From NCBI GenBank assembly GCA_951406725.2, contig OX597826.1, positions 64,108,001 to 64,172,000 on the forward strand: a DNA stretch of 64,000 bases. Reading direction: 5' to 3'. This DNA is from Octopus vulgaris (Eukaryota). Shown here one piece after another: positions 27,101 through 64,000 of this stretch (positions are counted from its first letter, which is position 1; every line of letters starts with the position of its first letter). The notes below the pieces were generated by a model that worked only from the letters and a program-made list of their open reading frames with translations, was not told where the DNA came from and searched no databases. Both the position numbers and the translations under genes were made by a program.

Positions 27101-27514
27101 ATCTCGTTCCGAGATTTATTATTACATTTTTATCCTTTTCATTTTATGTTCCAGAAATTATGCAAGATATTAATCGCCATCATTTGTGTATGTATGAAGC
27201 CGATGGCCCTGCAAAGCGGAAGTCCTTCATTATATTCCAACGTGCATTGTTAAGGTTCCAGGAAATAGGGGACGAAAAGCTAAACATGATGACCCTTATT
27301 ATCGATCTAATTGAGAACCGGTCCCGGCAGCTGGAACAAGACCGAGAAAACCTAGGTAAGTCACATTTCTATGTTTTTTTCTTTATATGAATAATATCTC
27401 TGCTTCATATTGCTAATTATTCAATCAACTGAAGAGAGAAATTTCAGTTTGACAATATATAAACAAAAATATTGGTAAACATAAAAAAAATGTGTGTGTT
27501 TCTGTATGTACGTA

Positions 27515-27559
<45 letters not shown>

Positions 27560-30500: not shown

Positions 30501-31634
30501 CCACAGTTTTATAACTGAAACAAGTGAAAGATAAAAAAGATATCAAACCATTATGTTGCTACTTATGGGTTCCCAGCAATTACTAATTCGCTACATTTTT
30601 GATGGTGAAAGTGACTTTAGAGCAGTGGTTTTCAACCAGGGTTCCGCGGAACCTTAGGGTTCCGCCAGTACAGTCCAAGGGTTCCGCAAGAAGTTACAAA
30701 ACTGCTAAAATCGGCAGTAATTTTTAATTCTCCTGTGCAGATATGTGTGCATAAGACTATTAAATTATTGCACAGGGGTTCCCCGAGCCAGTGGAATGTT
30801 TCCTTGGGGTTCCGCTCCAGCAAAAAGTTTGAAAAGCACTGCTTTAGAGCATACATCTATGCAACTTGGAAAGAGAATATACAAGAAATCCTTATTCAAA
30901 AAGCATAGGAGGGATTAACTCAAATAGTGAAGTTGTTGAGGGGGATTAACTCTGCACTTCTCAGAATTAAAATCATATATTTGAAGAAAAATTTTCTGAA
31001 AATAAACTTATTAATTACAGTGGAGCCTCAGGGTCAGTAAAATAAGTACCTGTTGAACACTGGGGTCAATGTAATTGATTATCTCTCTTCCCCCAAAACT
31101 TCAGGCTCTGTGCCTATAGTTGAAAGGATTATTATTATTGTTGTTAAGGCGGCGAGGTGGCAGAGTTGTTAGCATGCTGGGCAAAATTCCTAGCAGTATT
31201 TCATCTGTTGCTATATTCTAAGTTCAAATTCTGCTGAGGTCAACTTTGCTCTTCATCCTTTCAGGGTCAATGAAACACTAGGATCGATGTAATTGACTAG
31301 ACCCTGTGCCTTTAGTAGAAGAGGTTATTATTATTATTATTTTCTGTTTCAGGAGGAGAAAGACAGAGTGCCAAGAAAGAAGAAGAAGAGGAAAACTAAG
31401 AAAGAAAAGGAAAGTGAGAAATCTCCAATTGATCCACCTATCGATCCTGATGAGCCAACATACTGTGAATGTAACCAGGTGTCGTACGGAGAGATGATCG
31501 GCTGTGATAACGACTTGTGTCCTATAGAGTGGTTTCACTTCAGCTGTGTAAATTTGACTTCCAAACCAAAGGGGAAGTGGTACTGTCCAAAATGTCGTGG
31601 GGACAAGAGCAATGTGAAACGACAGGACAAGTAG
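6934..31634 (+). CDS. ING1: Inhibitor of growth protein (ING1/ING2-type), join(6934..7075,27155..27355,29978..30120,31353..31634), 255 aa
   Basis: Four exons with GT-AG boundaries and compatible phases (1,1,0) total 768 nt. N-terminal ING domain ([18 protein letters not shown]...QEIGDEKL), basic NLS ([17 protein letters not shown]) and C-terminal PHD finger ([30 protein letters not shown]...KGKWYCPKC) match the ING1/ING2 consensus. ING1 versus ING2 cannot be resolved in an invertebrate. Confidence 0.95.
8829..9375. repeat. About 550-bp compound (CA)n/(TA)n microsatellite
   Basis: Directly visible; source of spurious Y/I/C/V/H/T ORFs. Confidence 0.97.
11146..11590 (+). mobile_element. Short non-autonomous element between (TA)n tracts with a hammerhead-like core (Penelope pseudo-LTR-like)
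   Basis: Related sequence at 43645-43850; hammerhead fold at 11431-11493 followed by AATAAA. Confidence 0.55.
11431..11493 (+). ncRNA. Minimal type I hammerhead ribozyme-like motif (U4C variant, weak stem II)
   Basis: attctagcaaaaactgt-CCGATGA-acggcaatgc-GAAAC-tcaga-GTA-acaggttttgtagaat; stem I about 15 bp. Confidence 0.55.
13188..13459. mobile_element. Palindromic MITE-like element with about 110-bp imperfect arms
   Basis: gtttcacacctattatactcttagcaatatcagc vs gctgatattgctaagagcataataggtgtgaaac; ends tatttaatg...cattaaata. Confidence 0.7.
14971..15548. mobile_element. Possible solo LTR
   Basis: TGT...ACA termini, inserted between (CT)n and (CA)n tracts; no second copy in the window to confirm. 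Confidence 0.3.
16340..16560 (+). mobile_element. Decayed RTE-type reverse transcriptase fragment
   Basis: [12 protein letters not shown] and TDIDCADNI resemble RT motifs (SPxLFN, DxDYADD). Confidence 0.5.
16587..17232 (-). mobile_element. SINE-like element with Meta-domain-like core and (GAT)n tail; family copies at 26643-26962(+), 27560-27735(-), 29669-29900(-), 35450-35735(+), 42076-42460(-), 61305-61848(+)
   Basis: Shared core gttggcgttaggaagggcatccagc, tail ggacgttaaacgatgatgat, internal tandem gtgccaccggcac units. Confidence 0.85.
17917..18250 (-). mobile_element. Bipartite non-autonomous RTE-X-like element (5' end joined to 3' end, (TAAG)n tail)
   Basis: 5' motif ctcaatgatcctgagag...ggagtgtaagctcctagtaggg resembles RTE-X/Expander 5' ends (recalled); tail ttaagtaagtaa. 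Confidence 0.5.
22941..23281. repeat. 130-bp near-perfect inverted repeat (22941-23070 / 23152-23281) in a Penelope-like remnant
   Basis: 2 mismatches counted; the 81-bp spacer includes a SINE fragment. Confidence 0.92.
23000..23088 (-). ncRNA. Hammerhead ribozyme core with long stem II and palindromic stem III
   Basis: Minus strand CTGATGA-gaaagctgca...tgcagacttc-GAAACATATGTC; stem I disrupted. Confidence 0.55.
23829..24270 (-). mobile_element. tRNA-head SINE with internal (TA)/(CA) microsatellite; family copies e.g. 40357-40782(+), 12190-12510(-), 14279-14922(+, split), 21136-21760(+), 30170-30535(+)
   Basis: Box A/B-like head (tggctgtgtgg...ggttcagtccc), conserved body, tail gaaacaagtaaaagagtaaa. 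Confidence 0.88.
25116..26398 (+). mobile_element. Full-length (1283 bp) but inactivated mariner (DD34D, Hsmar1/cecropia-like)
   Basis: 27-bp TIRs (T[G/T]AGGTCGTCAAGTAT[G/A]AAATTTGTAG), TA TSD, WVSHEL, QDNA and [16 protein letters not shown] motifs; multiple stops. Confidence 0.93.
27155..27355 (+). CDS. ING1: ING exon 2 ([10 protein letters not shown]...[10 protein letters not shown])
   Basis: Polypyrimidine tract plus ttccag acceptor; donor AG|GTAAGT; ING coiled-coil domain motifs. Confidence 0.93.
28687..29560 (-). mobile_element. Internally deleted Tc1/mariner (maT-like) element
   Basis: Degenerate TIRs; WQQDSAPCH and [10 protein letters not shown] motifs. Confidence 0.8.
29978..30120 (+). 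CDS. ING1: ING exon 3 ([48 protein letters not shown]); not in the ORF track
   Basis: ctttttccag acceptor, open frame, AAG|GTAATA donor; phases bridge exons 2 and 4; contains a KRQRR NLS-like motif. Confidence 0.9.
30623..30841. mobile_element. hAT (Charlie/Buster-type) MITE, 219 bp
   Basis: TIR CAGTGGTTTTCAA...TTGAAAAGCACTG; perfect 8-bp TSD CTTTAGAG (30615-30622, 30842-30849). Confidence 0.93.
31353..31634 (+). CDS. ING1: ING exon 4, NLS plus PHD finger, stop TAG
   Basis: tttctgtttcag acceptor; C4HC3 PHD finger. Confidence 0.96.
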
Positions 31635-33575: not shown

Positions 33576-35148
33576 TTTTGAGAGAGATAGATAAATGAAA
33601 CAGTTAGCATTGTGTAAATATTTTGATATGGTTTCAAGCACCTTTCCTTGGTGAAAGGAAGAAAAAATATGTCATGCTATAAATATGGTTTTTCATTCAC
33701 AAAAATGACAATTCTTCATCCTACCACAACCACAAAAAAGAAAAAAAATGTATTCATATAAAATGATTTAAAGCAAAAACGAAAAAAAATGTACTCACAA
33801 ACCATTCTCTGATATTTTACCAGAGACTACATCAATCTAAAACTTTCATCAAGTAAACATTTTTTCCTCTTCATTCCTGTCATTTCATTAAATTAATCAT
33901 TATATCTTAAAAATATCAATTTAGAAAAGTACTCTTGTGTTGTTGTTTCTTGTTTTTTTTTTTTTCTTTTCTATTATTGTTTTTTTCTGCAAACAAAACT
34001 TAATCCATTGTTCTTTCTCCCATTATTTATTTATTTATTTAACAAGAACCTGCTCTGTCCCACCTCTCATACCTTAACCCTCATCTCCAAACTTAAAGAT
34101 GCTGTGATCCCCACCTCTCAGGTTTCATAGTCTTGTGAGCTACAGGATGGCCTCACCAATGTCAGTGGCATGCAAGATGCTTCTAGTATATGCTTGCTAT
34201 AAAATGGTTGGCATTTAGAAGGGCATCTAGTCATAGAAACTATGCCAAAGCAGACACTGGTGCATGATACAATCCTTGGACCCATAAAAGCCTGTCAAAG
34301 TGTCCAACTCATGCCAGCATAAAACAGTGACATTAAATGATGATAATGTTGATTAACTACTCCAGTAATATTTGATCTCCATAGCATGGAAAGCGGACGC
34401 TAAACGATGATGATGATGATGATGATGTGAATTTAAGTTTAAGGGAAAATTAAGTTTATACAAAAGTAGAGAAAATGATTCGCTATTATTTCTTGTAATA
34501 ACGGTTGAAATAGTTTGAAAATGATGTTTCTTTCTAAATAGGACATTTCAGATATTGAAACACCTTTTGAGTTTGCAAGATATTACAGCAAAATATTGCT
34601 TTCCTATGATTAGGTAAAAGGCAAAATTTTGTTGATTGTCTCATCCTCATTCTATTATTGATACTCGGTTTATTAACTGTGGAGGGCTGAAGAGTAAAGT
34701 GAATCTGAGTAATATTTAAATACAGAACACAGAAAAGTGGACCTGCTCTATCATTTCTGCCACTGCCTTTATCATAGCAAGATACTCTCTTCCAATACCC
34801 AGAATATTTAACGTTTTAAAATGTGAAACCAGAACACACAAATAGACTTATATATCAATGATTTAATTAAAAATTACATTCCAAAATGTTTTTAAGGTCC
34901 CTATTAATCTTAAAATTATTTAGAGTAAATCAAATTCATTTTAGATTATTTTAGCAAATTATGTTCATGATATTCAAAATAGCATAAAAATAGTTGTTCA
35001 AATTCATTTTTAGATCATTTTAGCAAATTGTGTTCAATTATCTAATATCAATTCAAAATAACATAAAAATCGTTGTTGGCTTTCATAATTTGATTTAGCT
35101 TCCTTTCCTAGGTTTTTTAATAACAAATTTGAACTGTGTATAATTACA

Positions 35149-35292
35149 TTACATTGGTGCTTCCCTGGGCTGTATAAGAATTTCGTTAACGGCAGCATAT
35201 TCTGGTTGTGATGTAGCGTAAATGCAAGCTTGTGCAACATCATCAGGCTCTAATATCTTTATTTTATTGTGAATATCATACAAATTAATTGC
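35149..35292 (-). CDS. SDR-A last exon ([47 protein letters not shown])
   Basis: ttttacag acceptor, TAA at 35149-35151. Confidence 0.92.
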   Translation of the reverse strand, partial: AINLYDIHNKIKILEPDDVAQACIYATSQPEYAAVNEILIQPREAPM

Positions 35293-38200
35293 CTGTAAAA
35301 TGGAAGAAAAATGAAAATACATCTATAAGTAAACTTAGAATCAACTAGTCAGGTGTAATAAGCTATGCTTTTAAAGTAGGTAATGCAAGAAGAAGAAATA
35401 GCGATGTAAGAAGGTTGATAATATGAAGTACATTGTTTATGTAACTATCCGAACGTTGCTGTAGCCAGCGCCGCATTGACTGGCCTCCATGCCGGTGGCA
35501 CGTAACAAACACCATCCGATCGTGGCCGTTGCCAGCCTCGCCTGGCACCTGTGTCAGTGGCACGTAAGAAGCACCCACTACACTCATGGAGTGGTTGGCG
35601 TTAGGAAGGGCATCCAGCTGTAGAGACACTGCCAGATCAGACTGGGCATGGTGCAGCCTTCGGGCTTCCCAGACCCCAGTTGAACCATCCAACCCATGCT
35701 AGCATGGAAAACGGACGCTAAACGATGATGATGTTGATTTACAAACTTTGAGGGGCATGAAATAATTAGGTTTTATTGATGAAGTTCCAAATAATAACAT
35801 GTAAATACTGGGTTAAAAACCCTTCAAGATAGAAAAAGTGAAAGGCTGCCTGTGGGACATTTCTATTCAATGGTTATTTTTAAAATTCTCATTGGTAAGA
35901 AGAAAGCTTGTAAAATGGGTGGAGAAATTTGAAGGATTGCTTTGGTCCAATAGTGGAATGTCTGTTAAATTTACAAAAGATGTAGTTTTCTCTCCAACAG
36001 GCAGCTTTTTTCTATCCAAAGGGTTTTTAAACCTGATATTTATATGCTATTATTTAGTTTTATCTAATTCTCAAAGACAAGTGGAACAGAGGAGGATGTG
36101 AGGTCTGGGATCTGCAGTTTTCAACTGGTCTTGTTCAAAGCCATCTCTTTCAAAACAAAAATTCACTTCTTCAATTCCAATGTCAAGGTCATTCTTGATG
36201 GGTTAGAAATTTGGAGGGTCATTAAAGCCATAAAGAGTAAGCTACAGGCCTTTGTCAACAAATGTCTGCACTACATCCTCAAGATCTTGTGGCGAGAGAA
36301 AATTTCAAACAGAAGTCTGTGAAATAGAACAAGATGAACTCCCATCGATCAAGAAATTCTAAAAAGGAAATGGGGCTGGATTGGTAACACTCTAAGGAAG
36401 TTTCCAAACAGCATTGCAAGACAAGTGTTAGACTGACAGCCTGAAGGAAAGAGGAAAGTTAGATGACCTAAAACCTGGAAGGGATATGTGGGGGATGGAC
36501 CAAAAACTGGCATGAAATGGTTGTAGCCATATGCTCCTTATGGAGTAATGTGGACTAAACTTTAAAAAATGGCCAAAACAGCTATAGCTTACATCTCTGG
36601 TGTCACATTTTTTAGAGCCAAAACCACCTCGATATCATATTGTCCATGTGATAGCTCAGTTCAGTATTAGATTTTCATAGTAAAATATATTTTAATATAA
36701 ACTTTTGGAAATTGATGTTTTGATATTGGCTATCAAAATACACCAATGGAGAAGTTCTTAACTGGATCAAGCTGAATCTGTTGCTGGAAGCTAGAATTAC
36801 CAAGCATAGATTGGCATATTTTGGTCATATTATGCAGAGAAAATCCCTGGAGAAGGACATCATGCTCGGAATGGTCAGTGGCAAGAGAAGAAGAGGCCAA
36901 ACAAGAACCCGCTGGCTTGACACCATTAAGAGTGACATGGGAATGGCCATAGCCAATCTGAAAGAAGCGACCCAGGATAGGACTGGCTGGAGAACACTAA
37001 TCCATCAAGTAACCGAGAGTCAACTTCGACTGAGCGGATAAGAGAGATCAAAATACATAGTGTAAACTTTTACTTTATTCTTGTCAAATTGAGCATCAGT
37101 CTGGAAATTTGTCTAATGTCACAATGAGTAGTGAAACAGCTAATATTAATTATCCTATTCAAAACCTTTTAGGAATCTGATACAAGTACAACACCAACTT
37201 TCCAAATGCCAACGGTTCAGAATCTTCTATAATCTGTATAAATAACAAGTACTTGTATTTCATTTAATCAATTAAGTAAATTTGATATTTGTTTGAGAGT
37301 GTGTAGGTCAATGTGATCACTCAGTTTGCAAAAATAAGTAACCCAGAAAAGCTTTGGAACCAAACATTTTGGAAGAACATCATTGTACTTGTATTTTATT
37401 TATGTTTGTTCTAGGTAAGCAGTGAAAGGAATTAAATGCTAAATACCTCTTGATCTGTTGTATGATTTAATATCTCTGTTTCCACATCACCTGGTTGAAG
37501 ACATGTTACTCGTATTCCCAAGGAAGCCACTTCTAGTCTTAGAGCTTGGGATAAACCTTCAACAAAGAATTTTGATCCAGAATATACAGCTAAACCAGGA
37601 AACCCCTGAAAAATAGGGATTGGGAGAAAATAATAAATATATAGTGACGTATATTTGCCATTTGAATATGGCTAACCCCTAAGGGTGGATGCTACTGTAG
37701 TTTGTAGCCCCAGAAGGACACCTCCTCCAGCTGGCTATAGACACACTTTCTGTGCCCTATCAGTATTTGCGAAGGGAAGCCATCCTTCCCGTCTTCAACT
37801 TATGATACACACGGACTTGAGTTTCAGGGTATTGACCCGTCATCGGCGTGTGACAATCATAGTTGTTGATGAGAAGTCGGTTCCCTTCACAAATACATAT
37901 ACTTTTTCCAATATCGATTGACACTGATATTGAAAAAGTGAAATCAAACAATGATAAATCTATAAATAAATATATATATATTTTTATTAGACATGTGGTT
38001 TCAGATTTATGACAGAAAATTTGATTAAATGAGGTTGATGCCTTTCTGAAAGGTATTATCAATGTGAGATGATGTGGGTGCAATTTAGAATTGAAAACTA
38101 GTCACTGATGTGATGAGCTGATTTGTTGCTGCTCTTTGGGCATAGATGATTTGGCACAAATGATTAGTTATTCAGCTTTTGTTGATGACTATTATTTTGT

Positions 38201-41638: not shown

Positions 41639-44266
41639 TTATAGTTAAGTTATATTTATAGTCAATAGAATGTGGCAGTCCTACACAGGACAATGTTACT
41701 ATTGTTTAGCCCCAAGAAAACCTCTTTTCCAGCTGGCTATCGACACAAAGTTTGTGTCCATATAGTTTGAGCAAGGGAAACAATCCAGAAACTTAGGTCT
41801 TAGAATCACGAAGGCTAGAAATGGGAGCGATAACCTCCCTTGCTCATGCTAAACAGACACAAACTGTGTGTTGGTAGTCAGCTGAAAAGAGGTTTTCCTG
41901 GGGCTAAACAGTAATAACATTGTCCAACACTTTACTGTGTAAGATTGCCACATTCTGTTGGTAAATAAAGTTTACTGTTTGGTACTGTTATTGCATATCC
42001 TCACTCAGACATTTAAAACTAGTTGTTTTTCTCTTTATATATATATGTATATATATTTATATATATATATATATCATCATCATCATCATCATCGTTTAAC
42101 GTCCGCTTTCCATGCTAGCATGGGTTGGACGATTTGATTGAGGGCTGGCGAACCAGATAGCTGCACCAGGCTCCAATCTTGATCTGGAAGAGTTTCTACA
42201 GCTGGATGCCCTTTCTAACGCCAACCACTCCGAGAGTGTAGTGGGTGCTTTTTACGTGCTACCGGCACGAGGGCCAGTCAGGCGATATTGGCATCGCCCT
42301 TGCTCGAAAGTTTTTACACGTGCCACTGGCACAAGTGCCAGTAAGGCGACGCTGGTAACGATCACGCTCAAATGGTGCCTTTTATGTGCCACCGGCACGG
42401 AAGCCAGTGAGTCGCTCAAGCAATGATCACCGTGGATGGTGCTCTTAGCACCCTACTAGCATGAGGCATATGAGGTACATTACATCTGGAGACAACAGGT
42501 GAAGTTAGAGTGGGATAAGAATCCGCTGTGAGCTACCAGCTTGGAGTGTTTCTCAGTGTAAGCGAGAAGGAAGAAAAAGGGTGAATGTCTTAATTCTCCT
42601 GCTTAAATAGTCGTTGCCAACAAGAGCCTCGCCATCGTCTTGTGCATGGCAAACGGTGGCAGGCAAGATCTCACTCCTGTCTTGGACATGGTAATGGCTA
42701 CTGGCGAGATATCGTACAAAATGGTGTTGGCTTCTTGTGCCTTGCTACATATATATATATATATATATAACGGGAAAGTTTACAAAAATAAACAAAAGAC
42801 GAAGGCAGATGGAGTACAAACAAACAAATGTATTAGTATAGCGCTCAGGAATAGAAATAGAAAAAGTCTTTTATGTTTCGAACCTATGCTCTTCGACAGA
42901 AAGATACACAGAAAAAAACAAGGAGAGAAAAAAATGCATGTAGGAGCTAACGATCTATCATGGCATCCTGATATATATATATATAGTAATATAGTTTCTT
43001 TGAAGCCATTGGCATAAAGAAGTAAAATAGCAAAATATTAAAAAACAAAGAGCTTTTTACAATGTGAAAAGGAAGAAGTTTAACAACCTTTATATATTTC
43101 TGGTACAATGGTCCATCATCAGAAATAAACGATGAAAATCTATACAATACTAGCCTGTACTTCCACCTATAACACCAAGATTTGTCCTTTTTTCCTCAGG
43201 AGAGTAGGGAAATGAAATCCATATGCTTTCATTCAATAATGTTTGTTATATTCATAAAATGAAGACCTCACAATCAGGCATCTCTAACATGTCTTGCAGC
43301 AAACTTATATTCTAAATTATTCCACACAATTAATCTGCACAGTGTGAAATATTCCTAATACTACAACAACGCAGATAAATGAAGTGATGATATATAAAGC
43401 TAAAACAAAGCTATATACTTTTCTTCCTGCATCAGAGGATATGTTGACGATATGACCAGACTTTTTCTTTATCATCCCATCAAGGACAGCACCAATACAG
43501 TTAGTCACACCCTGAAAAAACAAAAATGAAATGGTGTTCATTTTTCCAGTTTTATATTTTTCAAAAATTCAATACAATTTATTAAAAGCATTCCCTCTCT
43601 CCCTTTCGGAGAGGCACTGAGCAGCTATATGCACACATACACACAAGGCAAAGGGTGAAATTAATTAATTAAGAAGTAATCAGTAATTTCACCAAGTAGA
43701 ATTCGGCATGTAAAAGACCAATTCATGGTAAGTTTAAGTAATACTAAATAATTAGGGTTCAGCAACGATTTGCCTCACCACTTTGACTGCTATTTCTAAA
43801 TTCGGTGTGGTGAGGCAAATCGTTGCTGAACCCTAATTATTTAGTATATATATATATATATACGTTTATATATTTGTTGTGCAAGATTTTTTATGTGAAA
43901 TCGTGTGTTGAAACAGATATGGTCATTTTGCCAGTTTAGATTAAGTTTAATGTAAAAAATAAATAACACTGAAGCAAAGTAACACCAAATATATAGTGCG
44001 TGTGTTTTTATTGGCTAAACTGGCAAAATGACCATTCCGAAATACAACAATATATATATATATATATATATGGCTGTGTGGTTAGGGAGCTTGCTTCCTA
44101 GCTACATGGTTTCGGGTTCAGTCCCACTGCGTGGCACTTTGGGTAGGTGTCTTCCACTATAGCCCCGAGCCGACCGGAGCTTTTGTGATTGAATTCGGCA
44201 GGTGGAAGTTACTGCCGTGTGTGTATGTGTGCGTATAGCTGCTCAGTGCCTCTCCGAAAGAGAGAG

Positions 44267-44322
<56 letters not shown>

Positions 44323-44974
44323 TTTGTATGTTTGCATGTTACAGATATGTATATATACAGTGTACTGTTATGTGACTCTTTGCAGGTCTGTATTGTATGT
44401 ATCTGTGTGCAGGTGTATATAGTTTTATGTCTACATGTGTATACTGTATGTTTCTTTATACAGGTACATATTAAATGATTTACCTTGCAATTAGTGTCTA
44501 TCATACTATCCCATTCATCTTCTTTATGGTTTTTCATCAATGTGTAATATGAAGTACCAGCACAATTGACCAAAATATCAACTGGTCCAAAAGAACATTC
44601 TGTATGTCGAACAAGCTCTTTCACCTGCAAGAAGAAAAAAAAACATTGACAACAGTTGTTTTTTTTCCATTATTGATTGTTGGTATTGCTATTGTAGCTT
44701 TTCTTGTTTTCATTATCTTGCTTTTATGGTGGAAATTATTTTAATGTAACACACTTTAAATTTCGTGTCAAAATTGTGATGATATTTGGTCAATAACTGA
44801 TGAGGGGCTTAAGCTTGTCTGTGTCCATTCTGTGTGTGTTTTCTGTTTTTCTGTACTTTCATGTTTATTCTCCCTGTAAAGTCCTTTAGGCAAAGTCTTC
44901 TATTATAGACCTGAGTTGACCAATGCCTTGTAAGTGAATTTGGTAGATGGAAACTATCAGGAAGCCTGTCATGT

Positions 44975-45034
<60 letters not shown>

Positions 45035-47027
45035 ATCTTCATGCTTGTGTTTGTTTCCCCACAACTTGACAACTCGTGTTAGTTTGTTTATGTCCCTTGA
45101 TGCGCTGAAGAAGCCATAGTAAAAAGTAACTTTCATACCTGCTGTTTGTCAATAACATCTGTTTTAACGGCAATGACTTGGCCTTGAGCACCTTCTGAGA
45201 ACTTCTTGCATAATTCCTGCTGCTTATCATCCCTGCGAGCAGCCATAGCAACATTTGCACCTGCTTTAACATAGGCTTCTGCAATTGCACAGCCAATTCC
45301 ACTTGATGCACCTGTTACAATGACAACTTTTCCATGGATGTTGGTATCTGTAATATCAAATGAAGAAAATGCATATTTAACACAGCTTCCCCATTGTCAT
45401 CGCAGTAATGGTGGAAGTGGGATCAATTGCTTGACCCCATGGTATCCATCAGTGGGTTACTCTTTTAAATTTTTTACTTCAGCCATTAGACTGGCCATGC
45501 TGGGAATACTGCCTTGAAGAATTTTTAGTCAAATAAATCGACCCCAATACTATTTCTTTTTAAGACTGGTATTTATTCAATCAATCTCTTTTGCTGAACT
45601 GCTAAGTTGTAGGGATGTAAACATACCAACACCATTTCAGTTCTATATTTAAGAGATGAAGAATTATGTGTAATTCTTCATCAATAAGTAAAATGATTAT
45701 AATTGATCAGGAATTGAACCCAGATTGCAGGTACAACAGCAGTAGTCAGCACAATACAGGTGAAGTTATGTTAAGTCAGTGACCTAGAAGTAGTAACTAG
45801 TAAGACCCTAAGATATTAATGTTGCAGTTCCTTGAACTCATAGGACTGGTTACTCAATTTCCATGGCATATAAATGCCTGAGATCCCAATTTTTCCTCTG
45901 AAAGGGACACCGGTCCATTGAAGGGGTACTAGTCCATAATATTTACAGCTGAGTGGACTGGAGTTATATGAAGTGTTTTGCTCAAGAACACAATGCACTA
46001 CCCAGTCCAGAAATTGAAACCACAAGCTTGCAATTGTGAATGGAACACCCTAAGCACAAGATCATGCACTTTTACTGTCAGAGCTACTAGCAAGTTTTAA
46101 AAGGGAATAACAAAACCTCAGACAAATGACATTGTTTCAGGTAATGGCATATATATGACATTGTCTCAGATAGATACAATTGGTTACCCTGGACATTTCC
46201 TATGCTGGGATGACTGTTATGTTCAGCACATTGAGGTAGAGTTAAAGAGACAATCCATGCAGTGGAAACACTTCTCCTCACCTGCTCCAAAGAAGGCCAA
46301 AGTTGTTTCAGCTACAAGGAAGGTGACAGCCACAGGTTTTAGGGATGCAAAAAGTATTATGTTTGTTGACTACCTTCAAAAGAACCATGCCATCTATGGA
46401 GAGTACTGTGCCAACTTGCAAAGGGAGCTACGAAAGGGCATGAAAACCAAACACTCAGGAAACTGACAAAAGGGATCTTGTTCATTACAGCAATGCTCCA
46501 ACATACAAGTCCTTGGTTTCAATGGCCACTATGTGTGACTGTGGCTTTGCACTGGTTGATCACCCTCCCTATTCTGATTTGGGCCCCATTTTATTATCAT
46601 CTGTTCCCCTACATGAAAAAAATACTTGGCCGGGAAGCAGTATTGCAGTGAGGATGTCACAACTGCTGTTCATGACTTCTTTGACTAACAGGACAAAATC
46701 TTCTTCACTAATTGGATCACCAATGGAAGAAGTGTGCGGAAGGGAAGAGGACCTATGTTGAAAAATTAGTCTCATTTTGTCACATTTGATGAAAGTGTCT
46801 TGGTCAACCAATGAACTCTTCAGTTGATCCTTGAACATGCAACTTACCTTTACCACTCACTTTATAAAGTAAAAGGTAAAGTTAATTGAAGCCAGATTTC
46901 AACTCGGAGAAAAGAAATTAAATACTACTGCTGCCACTCAGGATTACTATGAAGAATATATTTGTAGTTTAAATAAATTTTTAGAAAAAAAAAAAAAGAT
47001 TTTAATGAACTTACTGATAGCACTCAT
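35149..47027 (-). CDS. SDR-A: classical NADP(H)-type short-chain dehydrogenase/reductase (YdfG-like / ATRR R2-domain-like), complement(join(35149..35292,37447..37605,43419..43511,44484..44624,45139..45347,47015..47027)), 252 aa
   Basis: All junctions are GT-AG and in phase (759 nt). Motifs: TGASSGIG, AARR (NADP preference), DILVNCAG, TNCKG, NISSDAG, YSGSK, QPGDV, VNEILIQPREAP. The 13-nt first coding segment is the least certain part. Confidence 0.9.
36130..36560 (+). mobile_element. RTE-X LINE 3' fragment
   Basis: FNSNVKVIL, LQAFVNKCL..ILKILW, RKWGWIG.TLRK motifs. Confidence 0.75.
36735..37045 (+). mobile_element. RTE (BovB-like) LINE 3' fragment
   Basis: RLAYFGHIMQR..LEKDIMLGMVSGKRRRG..RTRWLD..DRTGWR. 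Confidence 0.85.
37447..37605 (-). CDS. SDR-A exon with YxxxK ([25 protein letters not shown]...TTDQE)
   Basis: 159 nt, GT-AG, catalytic YSGSK. Confidence 0.93.
37645..37970 (-). mobile_element. About 330-bp structured insertion with a central hammerhead; absent from the paralogous SDR-B intron
   Basis: Empty site visible at 60880-60910; related termini at 26990-27077 and 41666-41958. Confidence 0.7.
37808..37852 (-). ncRNA. Minimal type I hammerhead ribozyme-like motif on the SDR-A sense strand
   Basis: cacacg-CCGATGA-cgggtcaataccct-GAAAC-tcaa-GTC-cgtgtg: 6-bp perfect stem I extended by a long rod, 4-bp stem II, GUC site. Confidence 0.65.
39188..41587 (+). mobile_element. rosa/DD41D Tc1-mariner transposon interrupted by four SINEs
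   Basis: About 31-bp TIRs CAGGGTCATCGAAAAA(T)GGTTTCTGTGATTT; MATVQQKAQCVLW, FSDEATF, QQD-41 aa-D (SPDLTPLDFF). Confidence 0.9.
41666..41958. repeat. Palindromic element with about 110-bp arms, related to the 37.65-kb element
   Basis: ggacaatgttactattgtttagccccaagaaaacctctttt vs aaaagaggttttcctggggctaaacagtaataacattgtcc. Confidence 0.8.
43419..43511 (-). CDS. SDR-A exon ([31 protein letters not shown])
   Basis: 93 nt, GT-AG, contains the catalytic Ser region. Confidence 0.93.
43741..43847. repeat. Perfect 41-bp inverted repeat with 25-bp loop; a second 21-bp IR at 43919-43939 / 44015-44035
   Basis: atactaaataattagggttcagcaacgatttgcctcaccac and its reverse complement. Confidence 0.9.
44484..44624 (-). 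CDS. SDR-A exon (VKELVRHTECSFGPVDILVNCAG...IDTNCK)
   Basis: ttcttgcag acceptor, AAG|GTAAAT donor, 141 nt. Confidence 0.93.
45139..45347 (-). CDS. SDR-A exon with Rossmann motif (TNIHGKVVIVTGASSGIGCAIAEAYVKAGANVAMAARR...TDVIDKQQ)
   Basis: ttacag acceptor, CAG|GTATGA donor, TGxxxGxG motif; this frame is not shown in the ORF track. Confidence 0.93.
46200..46830 (+). mobile_element. Decayed mariner (irritans-like) fragment
   Basis: KRQSMQWKH..SPAPKKAKVV, IMFVDYL and HPPYSDL motifs. Confidence 0.75.
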
Positions 47028-47164
47028 TCTTGATAATTTCTGTGGTAACAAAGTTTGTCAAAATATAGTTTCAAAAGAGTTGAATCAATATCAGGATATT
47101 CTCCAGAATTTCAAGCAAATTACAATTTCTGAATGTATTTAGAGCAGAAAAAAACTGAGTATTT
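47015..47164 (-). other. First coding/5'UTR exon of SDR-A; probable frameshifted relic of an NRPS thioester-reductase (R1) C-terminal exon
   Basis: Strong acceptor (tctctctattatttttctgccttcacag) and GTAAGT donor. Two broken frames read NTQFFSALNTFRNCNLLEILEN and YPDIDSTLLKLYFDKLCYH. The only ATG is at 47027 and is in frame with the SDR. Confidence 0.6.
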
Positions 47165-47599: not shown

Positions 47600-50500
47600 G
47601 TGGTGTTATGAGCCAGGCTATGTTGTAGGGAAGGACCGGAAGTGAAGGAGTATGCATGTCCTGTTGGAAGTGGGGCCTGTGGGTCCCACCAAAAGGGCTG
47701 TGGTGGGCATGCGGGGTCGGTGAGGTGCGAGTGGCCAGTTGGTGGTGAACAGTATATGAGAGCAGACCTGTTAGATGGTACAGCAGCAGACAGAGTACAT
47801 GGTAGAGTGGCAGAAAGAGCATGTGGACATTGTGAGTGACCCTTCCAGATTGACAGGTGAGACTACTGCAATTCTCTCTCTGCTTTCCATCTTTTCCTCC
47901 CTCACATCACAAGCTATTTTGGCACAAAAAAAAATTGATGGGTATGGTCCATATTTCAAAAAAGACGGTTTGGCCATTTTGTGGTGAGGGAAACGTCACT
48001 GCATGGTTGAAAAAAATTAAGTTAGTGGCAAGACTCCACAGTAAAGATGACCTAGAAAGTTTTATACCATTGTACCTTGATGGATCAGCATTGGTGCTAT
48101 ACCTGGAAATGATGGAGAAAGACCAGTTAAGCACAGAGAAAATAGAAGTCTGGCTGATGGAGGCTTTCACTGAAGGGCCATTTATGGTATATGGTCGACT
48201 GGGGAAAGCAAAGTGGATGGGTGAACAGGTTGATGTGTTTTCCAATGAAATCAGGAGATTGGCCAGACTTACGGGATACGAAGATGATGCATTGGAACAA
48301 ACAGTTACATTAGCATTTGTAGCAGGATTTCCTGACCATGTGTTGGTCAAACTGCAAAAGCTGCTGAATATTCACTCCATGGCAATGGTGGAGGTAATAT
48401 CTCAGGCCAGAGTCCTCACCTTGTGTTGTAGGATGACGCCTTTAGCAGCGACTGTAACAATGAGAAGGGGTCAAACAGAGCGGCGGAGAGGAAGGAACGT
48501 GTGTGTGCAACCCTTCAAAGGGCTGTGTTTTTGGTGTCAGGGTTTGTACATGGTGAGAAGCTGCAAAGAACCGAGGCCTGGAGTAATTTGCCATCGATGC
48601 AGAAAAAACAGGCCACATTGCTAGTGAATGCATTCAGAGAAACGGCCTAAGGGAGACTACTGTGCCAGTAGTCATCCTGTCGAAAGAAAAGAGGTGCGTA
48701 TACAGTCATCGCCAATAGTGGAAGTCATGGTGAATGGAAAGGTGTCACGAGCCCTCATGGACATGGGCTGCTCAACAACCCTAATGACTCCGGAGGTAGT
48801 AGAAGAATGGAGTGAAGTGAGTAGTGTAAGGGCTGTTGACGGTATGGAAGTTGAATGCAGAAGAAGTAGTGATGTGGAGATGGTAGTAGAAGGAAAGAGA
48901 TTGGGGTTGTGTACGATCGTTATTGACTGCATGGTGAACGGAATCAATGTGGTGATGGGGATGGATGCCATTGTCCGTTTGGGAGGTATCACAGTCAATG
49001 AAGCTGGTTGAATTCAGCACTGAAGATTATGGCGACAATTCTCAAAACCATTCTGGGAAAGGCGGACAAAGTGAAAAAAGCCACCAGTTCCTATATTGAT
49101 AACATTCTGGTGGACAAGAGCATAGTGTCAGCAAAGGAAGTCATAAGCCACCGGAAGAGTTTTGGGCTAAACTACTGGAGGAGGAGCTGCACAGGGTCTC
49201 AAGCTATGGAGAGACAAGGCTGACATGTTGATGTTTCAGAGAGGGAATGAGATCCCAGAACTAGGCAAGAACTGTTTTCTGTGTGTGGGAAGCTGCTGGA
49301 ACACTATCCGATTGCAAGATGGTTCCGGACAGCATGCAGCTTCAAGAGGCGAGCTGAAGAAGTGAGGTGGAGTGACAATGTGGGAAAGAAGACAACTGAC
49401 ATGATGCAAGAAGTCTTGGAGAGAGTGACTGCAGAGGACCCAGTAAGAGGAAACTGGTATGTATCCAAATTGAAGAATGGGATCGTGTGCTGTGATGCTA
49501 GCAGCATAGTAACAGGAGTTGTCATGGAAATTGGAGGTGTTGTGGTGGAGGATGTGGCCTGGCTCAGGAAGAAGGATGACTGCAACCACATCAATGTGGC
49601 AGAGCTGGATGCTGTGTTGAAGGGGATGAACCTGGCCATGAGGTGGAGGCTGCATACCATCAAGATCCGGATCGATTCAGCCATTGTACTTAGATGGGTA
49701 GGATTAGAGATCACTGGTGAGCGGAGGGTGCGAACCAAAGTGGGCACAGAGATGCTGATAAGATGCTGTTTGGGAATTCTGGGTGAGCTAGCTGCTGAGT
49801 TTGGCCTGAGGCTGAGTGTGTTTTTTTATGCCCTCTGAGAGGAATAGAGTGGACGTCCTGACTAGAGTAAAGAAAGCCTGGTTGCTGGTGCCGGAGGATC
49901 TGGAGCAAGGAGTGGCTGCAGTGTGTTGACTGAGTGACTCGGAGCTGAGGAGACTGCATACCATGCATCACATGGGGGTAGACAGGACCTTGTTCCTAGC
50001 CAGGAAAGTTGACTCTGACATGACCAGGCAGAGCGTGCAGAGAGTGGTTGGGAGCTGTGACAGGTGCCAGTTCATTCACCCCACTCTGGGTGTGCATGAA
50101 GCAGGAAGCATTCCAGTGGAATACAATTGGAAACAACTGGAACACTATCAGCAGGGTACATACCTCTCGATGGTTGACTGCAGACTGGGGTGGTTTGCCA
50201 TATGGAGGGAGATAAAGATGGGGACCACAGAGGAAATCACAAGAATACTAAATGAGATATTCCTAGAATGAGGCACTGTGGATGAGGTGCTTCTGGACAA
50301 TGGCATTGCATTTTGCTTGGAGGTGCTGAGGGAAATGCTCAACAAGTGACATGTTAGCCATTTCTTAAGGGTGGCATACTAGCCAAGGGGCAATGGGGTT
50401 GTAGAGAGGTATCATCACACCATCAAGACCATAGCAGAGAGGGGCCACATTTCACTGGTCGAGGCCGTTTTTTGGTATAATATGTCACCCAGGTTGGGAC

Positions 50501-50750
50501 AGGCTGAGGAGCCAGTGTCACACAGGGCAATACTCAAATATGAGTGGAGACATCTATGTACTGCATCACCACAATCTGCAGAAGAGAAAGAGCATGCCAT
50601 TGTGCAAGTTGGGGAAGAAATCTAAGTTAAACCTCCAAATGCGCAGTGCACATCACAATGGGGAAATAACCTCTATAAATACAAGGAACAATGTGTCTGT
50701 AGATGGCATGTCACATCATGTTTTGGATGTGCACAGGATCATCAATGCAG
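47600..50750 (+). mobile_element. Degenerate Ty3/Gypsy LTR retrotransposon internal region (gag-PR-deleted RT-RH-IN)
   Basis: Gag with Cys knuckles (47857-48624), protease ALMDMG, YIDNIL, RNase H CDAS/HINVAELDAV, integrase HH..CDRC, DNG, NGVVER; LTRs not recognisable. Confidence 0.88.
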
Positions 50751-50751
50751 G

Positions 50752-51068
50752 GATGGCCCCTCATGCAGCAAGAAGTGCCCCAAACAGCTCGTGTCGGTTC
50801 CTGTATTGCTGCACATTCAAATCTCTACCCAATCGACTCCAGAGGTTCTCAATAGGGTTCAGGTCAGGTGAATGGCCAGCACGTACTCCTCGCCACCAAA
50901 GAGGTATCCCGTACTATCTCAACGTACTTTGCTGCGTTGATGTTGCCTTCGACGGCATAGAGCCGCCCAACACCACTGTAGCTGAACGCCCCTCACACCA
51001 TCAGACCACCCCCACCATGCTTCATGGTGAGCAAATCAAGGGTGCTAATTAATTTCGGACGGTAGTGT
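50752..51068 (-). mobile_element. Tc1 fragment
   Basis: Minus strand SPDLNPIENLW; terminus ...ttcggacggtagtg-ta. Confidence 0.7.
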
Positions 51069-58359: not shown

Positions 58360-60050
58360 ACATTGAGAGGAAGGCCCCAAAATGGTGAACATTCTCTCCT
58401 GATGACCCCTGAAATGTACTGGCATCTGGTATGTGGTATATTTGATTGAGTGCACTTGCACTGGAAAGCTGTTTCCAAGTCTCTGTTGTCATCATTTAAC
58501 GTCCATTTTTCTATGCTTGATTGGTTGGGATTGAATTTGCTGAGGCAGGCTTTCTATGGTTGGGTGTTTCTTCCTGTCCCCAACGCTCACCTATTTCCAA
58601 GTTAATATTTCTTCCATAACCAAGCATATTTCCATGGAAGATTCAAAATGAAGGCCACAGCTGTATGACAGAAATACTTGTTTACAACTGTCACCTGATG
58701 TCAATGCGAGGAAACACCAGCACACATACATGCACATATATATGCATACATATGATGGGCTTCTTTCTGTTTCTGCCAACCAAATTCACTTACAAGGATT
58801 TGGTTTGCACCAGTCTATAGTAGAAATAGTGGAGGCGCATGGCTTAGGGGTTAGGGTGTTGGAATCATGATTGTAAGATTGTGGTTTTGATTCCTAGACT
58901 GGGTGATGCATTGTGTTCTTGAGCAAAACACTTCATTTCATGTTGCTCCAGTCCACTCAGCTGGCAAAAGTGAATAATCCTGTGATGGACTGGCATCCCA
59001 TCCAGGTGGGGAATTTATACACCACGGAAACTGGGAAACAGGTCCTTTTGAGTCATCATGATTTGAGAAGGTAACTTTACCTTCATCTTTTAGTCTATAG
59101 TTGAAGGCACTCATCCAAGGTGCCCAGTGGTAGGACTGAACCTGGAACAGTGTGATTGGTATGAATTAAAGTTGTAAGTCAAACAAGATGTTATAATAAA
59201 TTTATTCCAGCAAGAAAGGTAATTCTTTAATACATTTTTCAGAATACTTTAACATAAGGAAACCACATGAGTTTAATATTTTTACCCAATTCTCCTTGAT
59301 ATTAGTAATGTTTTGTCTGATGTTTTAGATATAGAAGAAGTATTCAATTAACTGTGCATATTTTACTTGGTCCATAAATATGTCCCCATTATTTTCATTT
59401 GTATAATAACCAGAAGTAAAGAAAATGGTTTGCTATTCTTTCTTATAACGTTGTAATAACAGTTGAAATAGTTTGAAAATGATGTTTCTTTCTAAATAGG
59501 ATATTTCAGATATTGAAACACCTTTTGAGTTTGCAAGATATTACAGCAAAATATTGCTTTCCTATGATTAGGTAAATGGCAAAATTTTGTTGATTGTCTC
59601 ATCCTCATTCTATTATTGATACTCGATTTATTAACTGTGGAGGGCTGAAGAGTAAAGTGAATCTGAGTAATATTTAAATACAGAACACAGAAAAGTGGAC
59701 CTAAACACTACAATTTAGAGTCTTGCTCTATCATTTCTGCCACTGCCTTTATCATAGCAAGATACTCTCTTCCAATACCCAGAATATTTAACGTTTTAAA
59801 ATGTGAAGCCAGAACATACAAATAGATTTATATATCAATGATTTAATTAAAAATTACATTCCAAAATGTTTTTAAAGTCTCTATTAATCTTAAAATTATT
59901 TAGTATAGATCAGATTCTTTTTAGATTATTTTAGCAAATTGTGTTCATGATATTCAAAATACAAAAAAATATTTGTCGACTTTCATAATTAAGTCTAGCA
60001 TTCTTTCCTAGTATTTTTTTAATCACAAATTTGAACTGTCTAGTATTGTA

Positions 60051-62153
60051 TCAAATTGGTGCTTCTCTTGGTTCTATTAGAATTTCATTAACGGCAACAT
60101 AGGCTGGTTGTGATGTAGCATAGATGCAAGCTTGTGCAACATCATCAGGCTCTAATATCTTCGTATTACTGCTACCATCATACAAATTCTTTGCCTGTAA
60201 AAGGAAATAAAAATAAAAATACATCTCTAAGTAAATTTAGAATCAGCTAGTTAGGTATAATAAGCTATGCTGTTAAAGTAAGTAATACCAAAGGAAGGAA
60301 TAGAGATGTAAGAAGGTTGATAATATGAAGTATAATGTTTATGTAATAAGGATTTATAAACTTTGAGGGACATAAAATAATTTGGTTCTACTGATGAAGT
60401 TAGAAATAATAATCAGACACTGATGGGCCAGAATCTCTAGTTTACTGGTATCCTGCACAGAATAGTATTAAAAAAAATTTTATCATTTATACTAACATAC
60501 AGGCACTTGTATTTCATTTAATTATGTAAGTAAATTTAATATTTGTTTCCTTTAGAGTGCGTTAACCAAGATGGTCACCCATAGCTTGAAGGATCAGTAA
60601 TCTGGAAAAATTTTGGAACCAAAGGTTCACAAAAGTCGTTGTTGTACCTGTATTTTATTCATGTTTATTCCAGATCTGACAGGTAAAAGAATTAAATGCT
60701 AGATACCTCCTGATCTGTTGTATGATTTAATAGCTCTGTTTTCACATCACCAGGTTGAAGGCATGTTACTCGTATTCCCAAGGAAGCCACCTCTTGTCTT
60801 AGAGCTTGAGATAAACCTTCAACAAAGAATTTTGATCCAGAATATACTGCTAAACCAGCAAAACCCTGCAAAAATAGGGGAAAATATTAGGTATATATTT
60901 TTTTCATTAGACACATAATTTCAGATTTATGACAGAGAAAATGAGATTAGATGAGGATGATGTCTTTCTGAAAAGTATTAGCAATGTGAGATGATATGCA
61001 TGCAATTTAGAATTGAAAACAAGTCACTGCTGTGGTGAATTGATTTGTTGTAGCCCTTTGGGGACAGATGATTTGTCCCAACTGATTAGGTGTTCAGCAA
61101 ACTGGACATTCAGCCTGTTTTGGCAGCTGTACTTTTTAGGGGTTGGAGGCAAACATAGTTGCGTACACGCATGCACACACACACACACACACACACATAT
61201 ACAGGTAGAAAGAGCGAGAGACATTGCAATTTAATAATCGAATATGATTGACACAAAGCTTTCTCTCTCCTCAGATACATAAAGACAAATATACTCACAC
61301 ACATATGCTGTACGTGAGAAGACCAGGCAGGACAAGTGAGCCCAGCCCACTTATGCATGCCTTTCCTTCCTTGGACACAAAGACCTGTTGAGGCAAGCGA
61401 AGTCGATATCGAACCTCATCCGACGACAGGCACCCATGCCAACCCCCTTTGCTTGCGAAGACATGTTGGGGCAAGTGAAATCGAAATCGAAATTGAACCA
61501 ATCCTATGACTGGCACCCGGCAGATGCCAGGACACCTGGACTGGTGGTACGTAAAAAGCACTGTCTGAATCGAGGCCGATGCCAGCGCCGCCTCGACTGG
61601 CTTCCGTGCCGGTGGCACGTAAATTGCACCAATCCGACCGTTGCCAGCCTCGCCTGGCACCTGTGCGGGTGGCACGTAAAAAGCACCCACTACACTCACG
61701 GAGTGGTTGGCGTTAGGAAGGGCATCCAGCTGTAGAAACATTGCCAGATAAGACTGGAGCCTGGTGCAGCCTTCTGGCTTCCCAGATCCCCGGTCGAACC
61801 GTCCAACCCATGCTAGCATGGAGAATGGACGTTAAACGATGATGATGATATAAACAGAAAGAAAGAAATAGAAAGAATGAGACAAACATTAAAATGCCTG
61901 ATGTCAAACAGGCCAGTGTTGAATCAGTGACATTAAACAAGTGGTGCCTAAATGTCTCATCAATTTTTGACAAAGACAAATCTGCATAGTTTATAGGTGG
62001 TTTTAATCGATTAGACTGACTCAATGATTGGTACTTATTTTATTGAGCTTGGAAGAATTAGAACTCAGGAAATAAAGGAATGTAACTAAATATCACGGGG
62101 CATGTTCAAACAATTCTACCATTCCACTGACTTCTGTAGAATAACTGATTTTT

Positions 62154-62212
<59 letters not shown>

Positions 62213-62547
62213 GTATGTGTGTGTGTGTGTGTGTGTGTGGAGGCGCAATGGCCTAGTGATTAGAGCAGCGGACTCGCGGTCGTAGGATCGCGGTTTCGAT
62301 TCCCAGACCGGGCGTTGTGAGTGTTTATTGAGCGAAAACACCTAAAGCTCCACGAGGCTCTGGCATGGGGTGGTGGCAATCCCTGCTGTACTCTTTCGCC
62401 ACAACTTTCTCTCACTCTTTCTTCTGTTGGACTGCTCGTTTAGCCAGTGGGGTGGCGTCATTTGAAGGCTAAAACAATGCGAAATGCATTGTGACCAGCG
62501 ATGTGTAACAATATCTTATGGCCTGGTCGGTCACGGTGATCACGGTG

Positions 62548-62610
<63 letters not shown>

Positions 62611-63423
62611 AAGAGACAGATAGATATGTATATAAGACATCTGTGTTTGTCATACTCTCATACTTTAGCTTTTCAACATCTGACATAAAGTCACCTTCCT
62701 CTCTTAAATGCTCTCCCTTCCTCACTCAGTTATGGACTTCTTTTCCTTTTAAACTGTTCCTTCTCTGTCTTTGCAAGTTACTTGTCATCCTCGTTAGTGC
62801 AACAGCATGAGTAAGGGCATCCATTCAGCCATAGAAATCATGCCAAAACTAACACTGGGGCTTGGCACAGCCCTCAGGATCAATAGGTCCTGTCAAACCA
62901 TTCAACCCACACCAGCATGGAAAATGGATGACAAAGACAGGGAACTTGCAACGTGAAAAGGAAAAAGGTTTAATAACCCTTATATATTTCAAGTACAATG
63001 GTCCATCATCAGAAATAAAGAATGACAAAATGTTAGTCTACAGTACTGGCCTGTACTCCCACCTAAAATATCAAAATGTGAGTTTTTTTTCCAGGAGAGG
63101 AGGGAAATGAACTGCATCTACTTTCATTCAATAATGTTTGTTATGTTCATAAAATGAAGAACTTACCATCAGGTTTCTCTAACATGGTTTGCAGCAAACT
63201 TACATTGTAAATTATTCTACACAATTAATCTACACAGTGTAAATTAGTCCTAATACAATCACCTAATCACAGACAAATGAAGTGATGATATATAAAGCCA
63301 AAAAAAAAACAAAAAAAAGAAGCTATATACTCTTCTTCCTGCATCAGAGGATATGTTGACAATATGACCAGACTTTTTCTTTATCATCCCATCAAGGACA
63401 GCACCAATACAGTTAGTCACACC
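60051..63423 (-). CDS. SDR-B: tandem paralog, last three exons complement(join(60051..60194,60707..60865,63331..63423)); 5' part lies outside the window
   Basis: Exon sizes 93/159/144 are identical to SDR-A. Translation: GVTNCIG...DAGRR / [14 protein letters not shown]...DQE / [18 protein letters not shown]...EPREAPI*. Flanking introns are homologous to those of SDR-A. Confidence 0.92.
62239..62549 (+). mobile_element. tRNA-derived SINE; related heads at 28231, 56247, 58831
   Basis: Box A tggcctagtgattaga, box B gtttcgattcc, body continues with no tRNA 3' end; flanked by microsatellites. Confidence 0.8.
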
Positions 63424-63937
63424 CTGAAGAAACAAAAATAAAAAGGTGTCCAATTTTCAAAAGTAATATATTTTCCAAAAATTGAATTGAATTTATTGAA
63501 AAAGTAAATTATTTTTAAAAATAAAGATATTGGTGATTTGTTACTGATAATTTATTTGTTATTCTTGCTTTAGCTAAAATCACTTAATATTTTCTAATTT
63601 TAGATCTGTATTCAGGTATATCTGTATATCTATAAAAGGCAGGATGTGTGTGTGTGTGTTTGTGTGTGTATACATGAACGTAATTTATGCACGTCCACAA
63701 ATTAGCATGCATGGAACTCCAATTTTGGGAAGACATTCGTCACAACCCTAGTTGGATTTTTGTCAACTTATTTTTCTCGAGGCACCCATGGATAGCAGTA
63801 AAAATTGATTTTCAACCATAACTTTTACCAATTTTGAAGTTTGCTAACATGAGTTAAGTCCCCTTCTTACCATAAGGAAGTGAAAGCGTGTGTGTGTGTG
63901 TGTAAGGGAGAGAGAGAGAGAAGTTGTGTGTTGATGT

Positions 63938-63971
<34 letters not shown>

Positions 63972-64000
63972 GAGAGAGATTTTGACAGTGTCTAACAAAA

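Follow-up and report, generated by a model that had tools for sequence, protein, structure and literature searches.

Terminal exons of a probable ATRR-type glycine betaine reductase gene in Octopus vulgaris and a tandem partial duplicate that carries its last reductase domain

We analyzed a window of 64,000 nucleotides of the Octopus vulgaris genome (assembly GCA_951406725.2, contig OX597826.1, positions 64,108,001 to 64,172,000 of the forward strand), which carries on its minus strand two related coding stretches of the short-chain dehydrogenase/reductase (SDR) type, here called SDR-A and SDR-B. From sequence and from analogy with a fungal enzyme, we propose that the three SDR-B exons are probably the tail of an octopus ATRR-type enzyme that likely reduces glycine betaine to choline. 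ATRR is defined by its A-T-R1-R2 layout (Hai et al., 10.1101/559534), that is, an adenylation (A) domain, a thiolation (T) domain and two reductase domains (R1 and R2), the last of which would be the part encoded in the window. In addition, we found that a tandem partial duplication copied this gene from its last R1 exon to its 3' flank, giving rise to SDR-A, in which a methionine of the R1-R2 linker now opens a free R2 domain.

The SDR-B exons match the end of an A-T-R1-R2 protein

The SDR-B exons are given below with the numbering of the R2 domain and that of P0001, an Octopus sinensis protein of 1282 amino acids that was the best match among the longer proteins when the second exon was searched.

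63331..63423 (-): third-last exon of SDR-B/ATRR, 93 nucleotides; R2 residues 122-152 (P0001 1152-1182), with the catalytic Ser (R2 S147) and the ATRR-typical Asp148
60707..60865 (-): second-last exon, 159 nucleotides; R2 residues 153-205, with the catalytic YxxxK (Y160/K164, P0001 Y1190/K1194)
60051..60194 (-): last exon, 144 nucleotides including the TGA stop; R2 residues 206-252, with Y210, E246 and P251

An earlier note on this DNA had described three intact exons with a particular C-terminal end, and we confirm this: the exons are in phase 0, have AG acceptors throughout, GT donors on the first two and no internal stops, and splice to a product of 131 amino acids with the same ending. The first exon matches positions 111-140 of Pfam adh_short (E 2.3e-6) and the second, collinearly, positions 143-193 (E 3.3e-12), which argues against chance open frames; the third exon, searched alone, gave no Pfam match. 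Together, the exons encode the Ser-Tyr-Lys triad of a YdfG-like classical SDR (S147, Y160, K164). The preceding R2 exon was not found in the last 577 bases of the window (63424-64000), and the upstream remainder of the gene therefore lies beyond the window edge.

The second exon is 100% identical to P0001, and all 131 residues of the spliced product (131/131, no differences) are identical to its C-terminus. P0001 contains, in this order, the Pfam domains AMP-binding (14-369), AMP-binding_C, PP-binding (533-596), NAD_binding_4 (656-904) and adh_short (1041-1235), along with the catalytic residues expected of each part: Lys506 of motif A10, Ser560 of the T domain, which carries the phosphopantetheine, Tyr828 of R1, and Ser1177, Tyr1190 and Lys1194 of R2. 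The earlier note had predicted SDR-B to be the 3' end of an animal ATRR and had named an SDR of only about 250 amino acids as the outcome that would contradict this; the identity to this 1282-residue, four-part protein supports the prediction. The NCBI name of P0001, 'linear gramicidin synthase subunit D', is misleading: its 12 Pfam hits include no condensation domain, and it has only one A and one T domain. We likewise rejected Lys2 and the bacterial carboxylic acid reductases (A-T-R), for which P0001 scored 397 bits against a cut-off of 1030 (TIGR03443) and 181 against 1300 (NF041592); these families end in a single R domain and do not fit a protein with a second one.

Among the 120 matches listed for the search with the second exon, 30 have at least 1000 amino acids, and the named ones come from molluscs, a nemertean, a tunicate and nematodes. 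P0335, a fungal protein that NCBI names 'Glycine betaine reductase ATRR', has the same domain order as P0001 and is 35% identical to it end to end, with 131 of 251 residues identical in R2. The Aspergillus nidulans ATRR was not among the 120 listed fungal proteins, and P0335 and P0363 were used as stand-ins; both align with P0001 from end to end at 35-37% identity, and a nematode homologue reaches about 45%. The fungal set is biased towards neighbours of P0130, P0335 among them. No solved ATRR structure was present among the best 60 of 291 PDB matches. As a side observation, the tunicate Styela clava has an ATRR (P0030) whose pocket code is divergent, and the family thus extends to chordates.

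SDR-A arose by partial duplication of the ATRR gene

The exons of SDR-A, with changes given relative to the parent, and the duplicated flank are as follows.

47015..47164 (-): SDR-A exon 1, a decayed copy of the last R1 exon (P0001 978-1034); 150 nucleotides against about 170 expected
45139..45347 (-): SDR-A exon 2, with the TGxxxGIG cofactor motif and a basic ARR motif
44484..44624 (-): SDR-A exon 3, with V98T, M99S, L107H and R114S
43419..43511 (-): SDR-A exon 4, paralogue of 63331-63423
37447..37605 (-): SDR-A exon 5, paralogue of 60707-60865, with YxxxK intact
35149..35292 (-): last exon of SDR-A, with the stop; G212I, S213H, V238A and E246Q
59411..59976 (-): 3' flank of the ATRR gene, duplicated behind SDR-A at 34461-34997 with 90.7% identity; AATAAA at 59632

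SDR-A has an open frame of 252 codons across six exons (47164-35149) with canonical splice sites. Its first exon holds a remnant of R1 that was found by tblastn with E 1.8e-11; 20 shuffled windows gave nothing better than E 0.25. This exon is about 20 nucleotides short and is read in three successive frames, i.e. with two frameshifts, so its R1 part is dead. The only ATG in it (47027) corresponds to the methionine of the R1-R2 linker and opens the SDR-A frame, and it is likely the start codon. The intron positions of SDR-A and SDR-B match, and introns and flanks are 66-91% similar. Given the R1 remnant and the duplicated introns and 3' flank, the copied segment starts within R1 and extends beyond the stop, and the ATRR gene is the parent, which bears out the earlier suggestion that SDR-B is probably the parent of SDR-A. 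SDR-A itself does not have the ATRR architecture, being an R2 domain of 252 amino acids behind a frameshifted R1 remnant. A search around it with five ATRR queries gave no A or T remnants at E <1, only the R1 remnant and a cross-match to exon 5 at E 0.83. SDR-A is a small example of domain fission through partial duplication with reuse of a linker methionine.

We also considered whether a conserved internal methionine could yield a free R2 in all animal ATRRs, and rejected this idea: the linker methionine is present in 8 of the 28 scorable proteins of the 30-protein animal set, close to the chance expectation of about 30%, and in 8 of the 104 scorable fungal ATRRs (119 in the set). Separately, we observed that the duplicated 3' flank (90.7%) is closer between the copies than the duplicated exon and intron blocks (66-87%) and that AATAAA occurs in both copies; the higher identity may reflect a constrained 3' untranslated region or gene conversion.

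In a maximum-likelihood tree of R2 domains with 34 rows, with which a quick tree of 59 rows agrees, SDR-B groups with P0001, and SDR-A groups with the O. sinensis model P0002 (100/95) and with P0438 of Octopus bimaculoides (99/93). These five form one clade (100/98) that is sister to two cuttlefish-like ATRRs. Both copies nest in this way among cephalopod ATRR R2 domains (a clade of seven rows, 100/99), and not outside the ATRR R2 clade, a placement that the earlier note had named as evidence against its proposal. This topology indicates that the duplication likely occurred in the Octopus lineage, before the split from O. bimaculoides. The deeper branches are mostly without resolution. Actinobacterial stand-alone SDRs group with the fungal R2 domains, and because stand-alone SDRs of bacteria and algae fall among the ATRR R2 domains, these do not make up an exclusive clade. 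Among these stand-alone SDRs we note P0402, P0452, P0490 and P0471 of Rubrobacter/Actinomycetota and Mesostigma, which lie next to the fungal ATRR R2 in the tree and might be free betaine aldehyde reductases or represent the origin of R2.

SDR-A is fairly likely a working enzyme, and we suggest that it would be a stand-alone NADPH-dependent aldehyde reductase with a loosened or shifted specificity. The excised R2 of the fungal enzyme reduces betaine aldehyde (Hai et al., 10.1101/559534), which makes a free enzyme plausible. That SDR-A is a decaying duplicate instead is possible, if rather doubtful. Its sequence has evolved faster: counted against two outgroups, SDR-A has 22 unique changes compared to 3 in SDR-B (p 1.6e-4) and 20 compared to 5 (p 0.004), and at its 33 differences from the parent R2 the residue that is commoner in 29 other ATRRs stands in the parent in 25 instances and in SDR-A in 5, with 3 tied. 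Conserved sites are hit as well (M99S, S213H, V238A and E246Q, and L47Q in the copy of this window), so that SDR-A is without M99 and without E246, a residue kept by nearly all ATRR R2 domains. Finally, the O. bimaculoides orthologue P0438 (LOC106880497) carries R42H and is a model that runs out of frame from the exon 5 junction, a tail that may be due to decay (a pseudogene) or to an assembly error. Against decay, the six-exon frame is open here, despite the two frameshifts in the R1 part, and so is the 252-residue P0002 in O. sinensis, from which SDR-A differs at only 4 of 252 residues. Moreover, the catalytic Asn, Ser, Tyr and Lys and the cofactor motifs are intact, and the pairwise ratio of nonsynonymous to synonymous divergence (dN/dS) between SDR-A and SDR-B is about 0.3 over the 131 codons shared in the last three exons (dN 0.062-0.066, dS 0.17-0.23). 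A stand-alone R2-like protein also occurs in Mytilus edulis, where it is about 63% identical to the R2 domains of Mytilus ATRRs, and further stand-alone models are found in Dreissena and, with about 250 amino acids, in Lottia, Liolophura and hemichordates; those of Lottia, Dreissena and the hemichordates may be split annotations.

The substrate pocket and the proposed function

For the substrate code of the A domain we used ten positions in PheA numbering; matches to 1amu and 5n82 anchored the register, nine positions were read from the alignment and the lysine of the tenth from a motif. The octopus code (P0001) is VFWLICLDVK and the commonest fungal code VFWLWNCEIK (73/120 at the nine aligned positions), with agreement at 5 of 10 positions. 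Asp235, which binds the alpha-amino group, is absent from the A domain of P0001, with V199 in its place (1amu match, query 16-61 to chain 238-283). F200, W203 and D305 of P0001 align with F201, W204 and E304 of the A. nidulans enzyme, and this mapping is anchored by the fungal P0363, which has F201, W204, W270 and E304 at exactly the numbers given by Hai et al. The nematode proteins P0090, P0093 and P0094 differ from octopus, among the nine positions compared, only at a site with His or Ile. We had also considered F243 as a compensating aromatic residue at code position 278, an idea that we dropped because matches to TycA and PheA place 278 on L242.

Within R2, animal and fungal ATRRs share the residues Y100, D148, Y210, E246 and P251, which are infrequent among 67 distant stand-alone SDRs; E246, for example, is present in 27/29 proteins of the animal set, 117/119 of the fungal set and 6/67 distant SDRs. 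These residues may contact the substrate. In the fungal R2 the charge of the substrate is essential (Hai et al., 10.1101/559534), and an acidic and aromatic set of this kind would fit the cationic betaine aldehyde.

By analogy, glycine betaine is the substrate that we propose for the octopus enzyme. In a mechanism transferred from Aspergillus, the A domain, whose pocket is aromatic and acidic, would activate betaine by adenylation with ATP, and the activated betaine would be loaded onto the phosphopantetheine arm of T. R1 would use NADPH to free betaine aldehyde, and R2, the part in the window, would consume another NADPH in converting this aldehyde to choline.

Several points weigh against this proposal. 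The evidence for the A, T and R1 domains is the O. sinensis gene model P0001, which lies outside the window. The cage residue W270 is Ile271 in P0001, which retains the acidic residue and the other two aromatic residues of the cage, and four further code positions differ from the fungal enzymes. The W270 site is Trp in 119/120 fungal proteins and in 14 of the 25 complete proteins of the animal set (5 of 30 were incomplete and dropped), the others having Ile (5), His (3), Leu (2) or Val (1). For the nematode enzyme MiATRR, the available part of the report gives growth rescue of yeast, not detection of the product, and its text does not make visible whether His or Ile stands at the variable site (PMC11050029). 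Our literature search found no assay of an octopus or mollusc ATRR.

We consider it unlikely, but worth weighing, that the same A-T-R1-R2 chemistry acts in octopus on a different or broader range of substrates, such as another betaine, a sulfonium osmolyte or an aromatic acid, with one cage Trp lost. The Ile at the W270 site, the differences at five of ten code positions and the variation of this site among animals all favour such a shift, as does a diatom homologue reported to reduce tryptophan (PMC13194791, seen in part), which means that the architecture alone does not fix the substrate. On the other hand, the pocket retains its Phe, its Trp and its acidic residue, Ile recurs at the W270 site in 5/25 animal proteins, a His/Ile position is variable among plant-parasitic nematode ATRRs in the portion of PMC11050029 available, and R2 retains the acidic and aromatic residues typical of ATRR. 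Furthermore, the main text of the diatom study, as far as accessible, has 'glycine betaine' in its references only, so that betaine is not visibly excluded there (PMC13194791).

It is highly improbable that SDR-B is a stand-alone SDR of about 250 amino acids or the tail of a broken ATRR, even with the upstream exons outside the window and R2-like models of that size in Mytilus, Lottia, Liolophura and hemichordates, given the full identity to P0001, the location of P0001 and P0002 on contigs of equal length (72,296,471), matching the tandem layout seen here, the R1 remnant in SDR-A, which shows that the copied parent had an upstream R1 exon, and the conservative evolution of the B lineage.

The oxidation of choline to betaine has been considered an irreversible step (Hai et al., 10.1101/559534). 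If an intact octopus ATRR as proposed here exists, a cephalopod would have a one-enzyme route from betaine back to choline. This would bear on dietary choline needs in octopus rearing and possibly on neurons. Partial views of the literature indicate that choline and betaine genes of octopus paralarvae respond to diet (PMC6635378), that betaine is present in squid mantle (PMC9455610), and that nervous tissue of Aplysia makes little choline of its own, relies on outside supply and degrades acetylcholine to betaine (PMC2214879, PMC2214876). Aplysia also has an ATRR (P0049). The squid and Aplysia data make salvage plausible without placing the enzyme in neurons, and the most likely use in octopus is general salvage of choline from the betaine pool for phospholipids. 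The presence of the gene in bivalves, tunicates and nematodes does not suggest a neural role specific to cephalopods. A bolder scenario, to which we give little credence, is that the octopus ATRR returns stored betaine to choline for neural acetylcholine, closing a loop thought to be one-way in animals, and that the R2 freed in the Octopus lineage has a pocket re-tuned, through M99S, S213H and E246Q, towards another aldehyde that is perhaps uncharged; R2 may have been set free more than once in molluscs, with both forms present in Mytilus.

Other features of the window

27043-31631 (+): ING-family gene, with an ING N-terminal domain open reading frame at 27043-27387 and a PHD finger open reading frame at 31293-31631; tail to tail with SDR-A
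47854-50625 (+): decayed pieces resembling a long terminal repeat (LTR) retroelement, with an aspartyl protease (48628-49008), DUF7047/RVT_3 (49251-49835) and integrase-like frames identified by eye near 49930-50625
2689-3057, 25280-25741, 46101-46463 and 50764-50913: Tc1/mariner transposase fragments (DDE_3, HTH_48, Transposase_1), one of them inside SDR-A intron 1
61303-61850: dispersed repeat of roughly 300 bp in the ATRR intron 63330-60866

The LTR-like pieces start some 0.7 kb upstream of SDR-A exon 1 and may mark the edge of the duplication or supply a promoter. Copies of the repeat in the ATRR intron are located at about 16584-17200, 19085, 26651, 27561, 28574, 29671, 35464 and 42082.

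Comparison with known systems

Invertebrate homologues of ATRR were noted in 2019 (Hai et al., 10.1101/559534), and, according to the part of PMC11869996 seen, mollusc genomes carry homologues of glycine-betaine reductase. Our literature search brought up no published work on a cephalopod ATRR or on the SDR-A duplicate, although subscription journals or supplements may hold one. The ATRR of A. nidulans (AN5318) shares with the octopus protein the A-T-R1-R2 layout, the absence of Asp235, a Phe, Trp and acidic pocket at the same spacing, the Tyr of R1 and R2 and a YdfG-like R2. It differs in having Trp270 and Glu304 where octopus has Ile and Asp, and the identity of P0001 to fungal ATRRs is about 35-37%. 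MiATRR of Meloidogyne incognita is an animal A-T-R1-R2 protein whose code departs from the fungal one at five of ten positions, with His or Ile at one site. According to the sections of the study available, it rescued yeast from betaine toxicity, and its function, shown by yeast rescue and RNA interference, is tied to plant parasitism (PMC11050029).

PtNRPS1 of the diatom Phaeodactylum tricornutum is an A-T-R1-R2 homologue of the A. nidulans enzyme that performs two sequential reductions from acid to alcohol, and in the text accessible to us the reported reaction leads from L-tryptophan to tryptophanol, unlike the substrate proposed for octopus; judging by residue spacing, the Ile and Asp of the octopus pocket would correspond to Phe and Glu in the diatom enzyme (PMC13194791). 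Finally, the molluscan FmtATR of the bursatellin pathway is, like the octopus ATRR, a monomodular reductase resembling a nonribosomal peptide synthetase and encoded by an animal, but it has a distinct domain organisation and lies in a biosynthetic gene cluster (PMC11869996, seen in part); no tailoring enzymes turned up among the 40 open reading frames of our window that were scanned. In summary, both the ATRR family and its occurrence in molluscs have been published before; the octopus gene is a further member, and SDR-A adds a small, lineage-specific case of domain fission.

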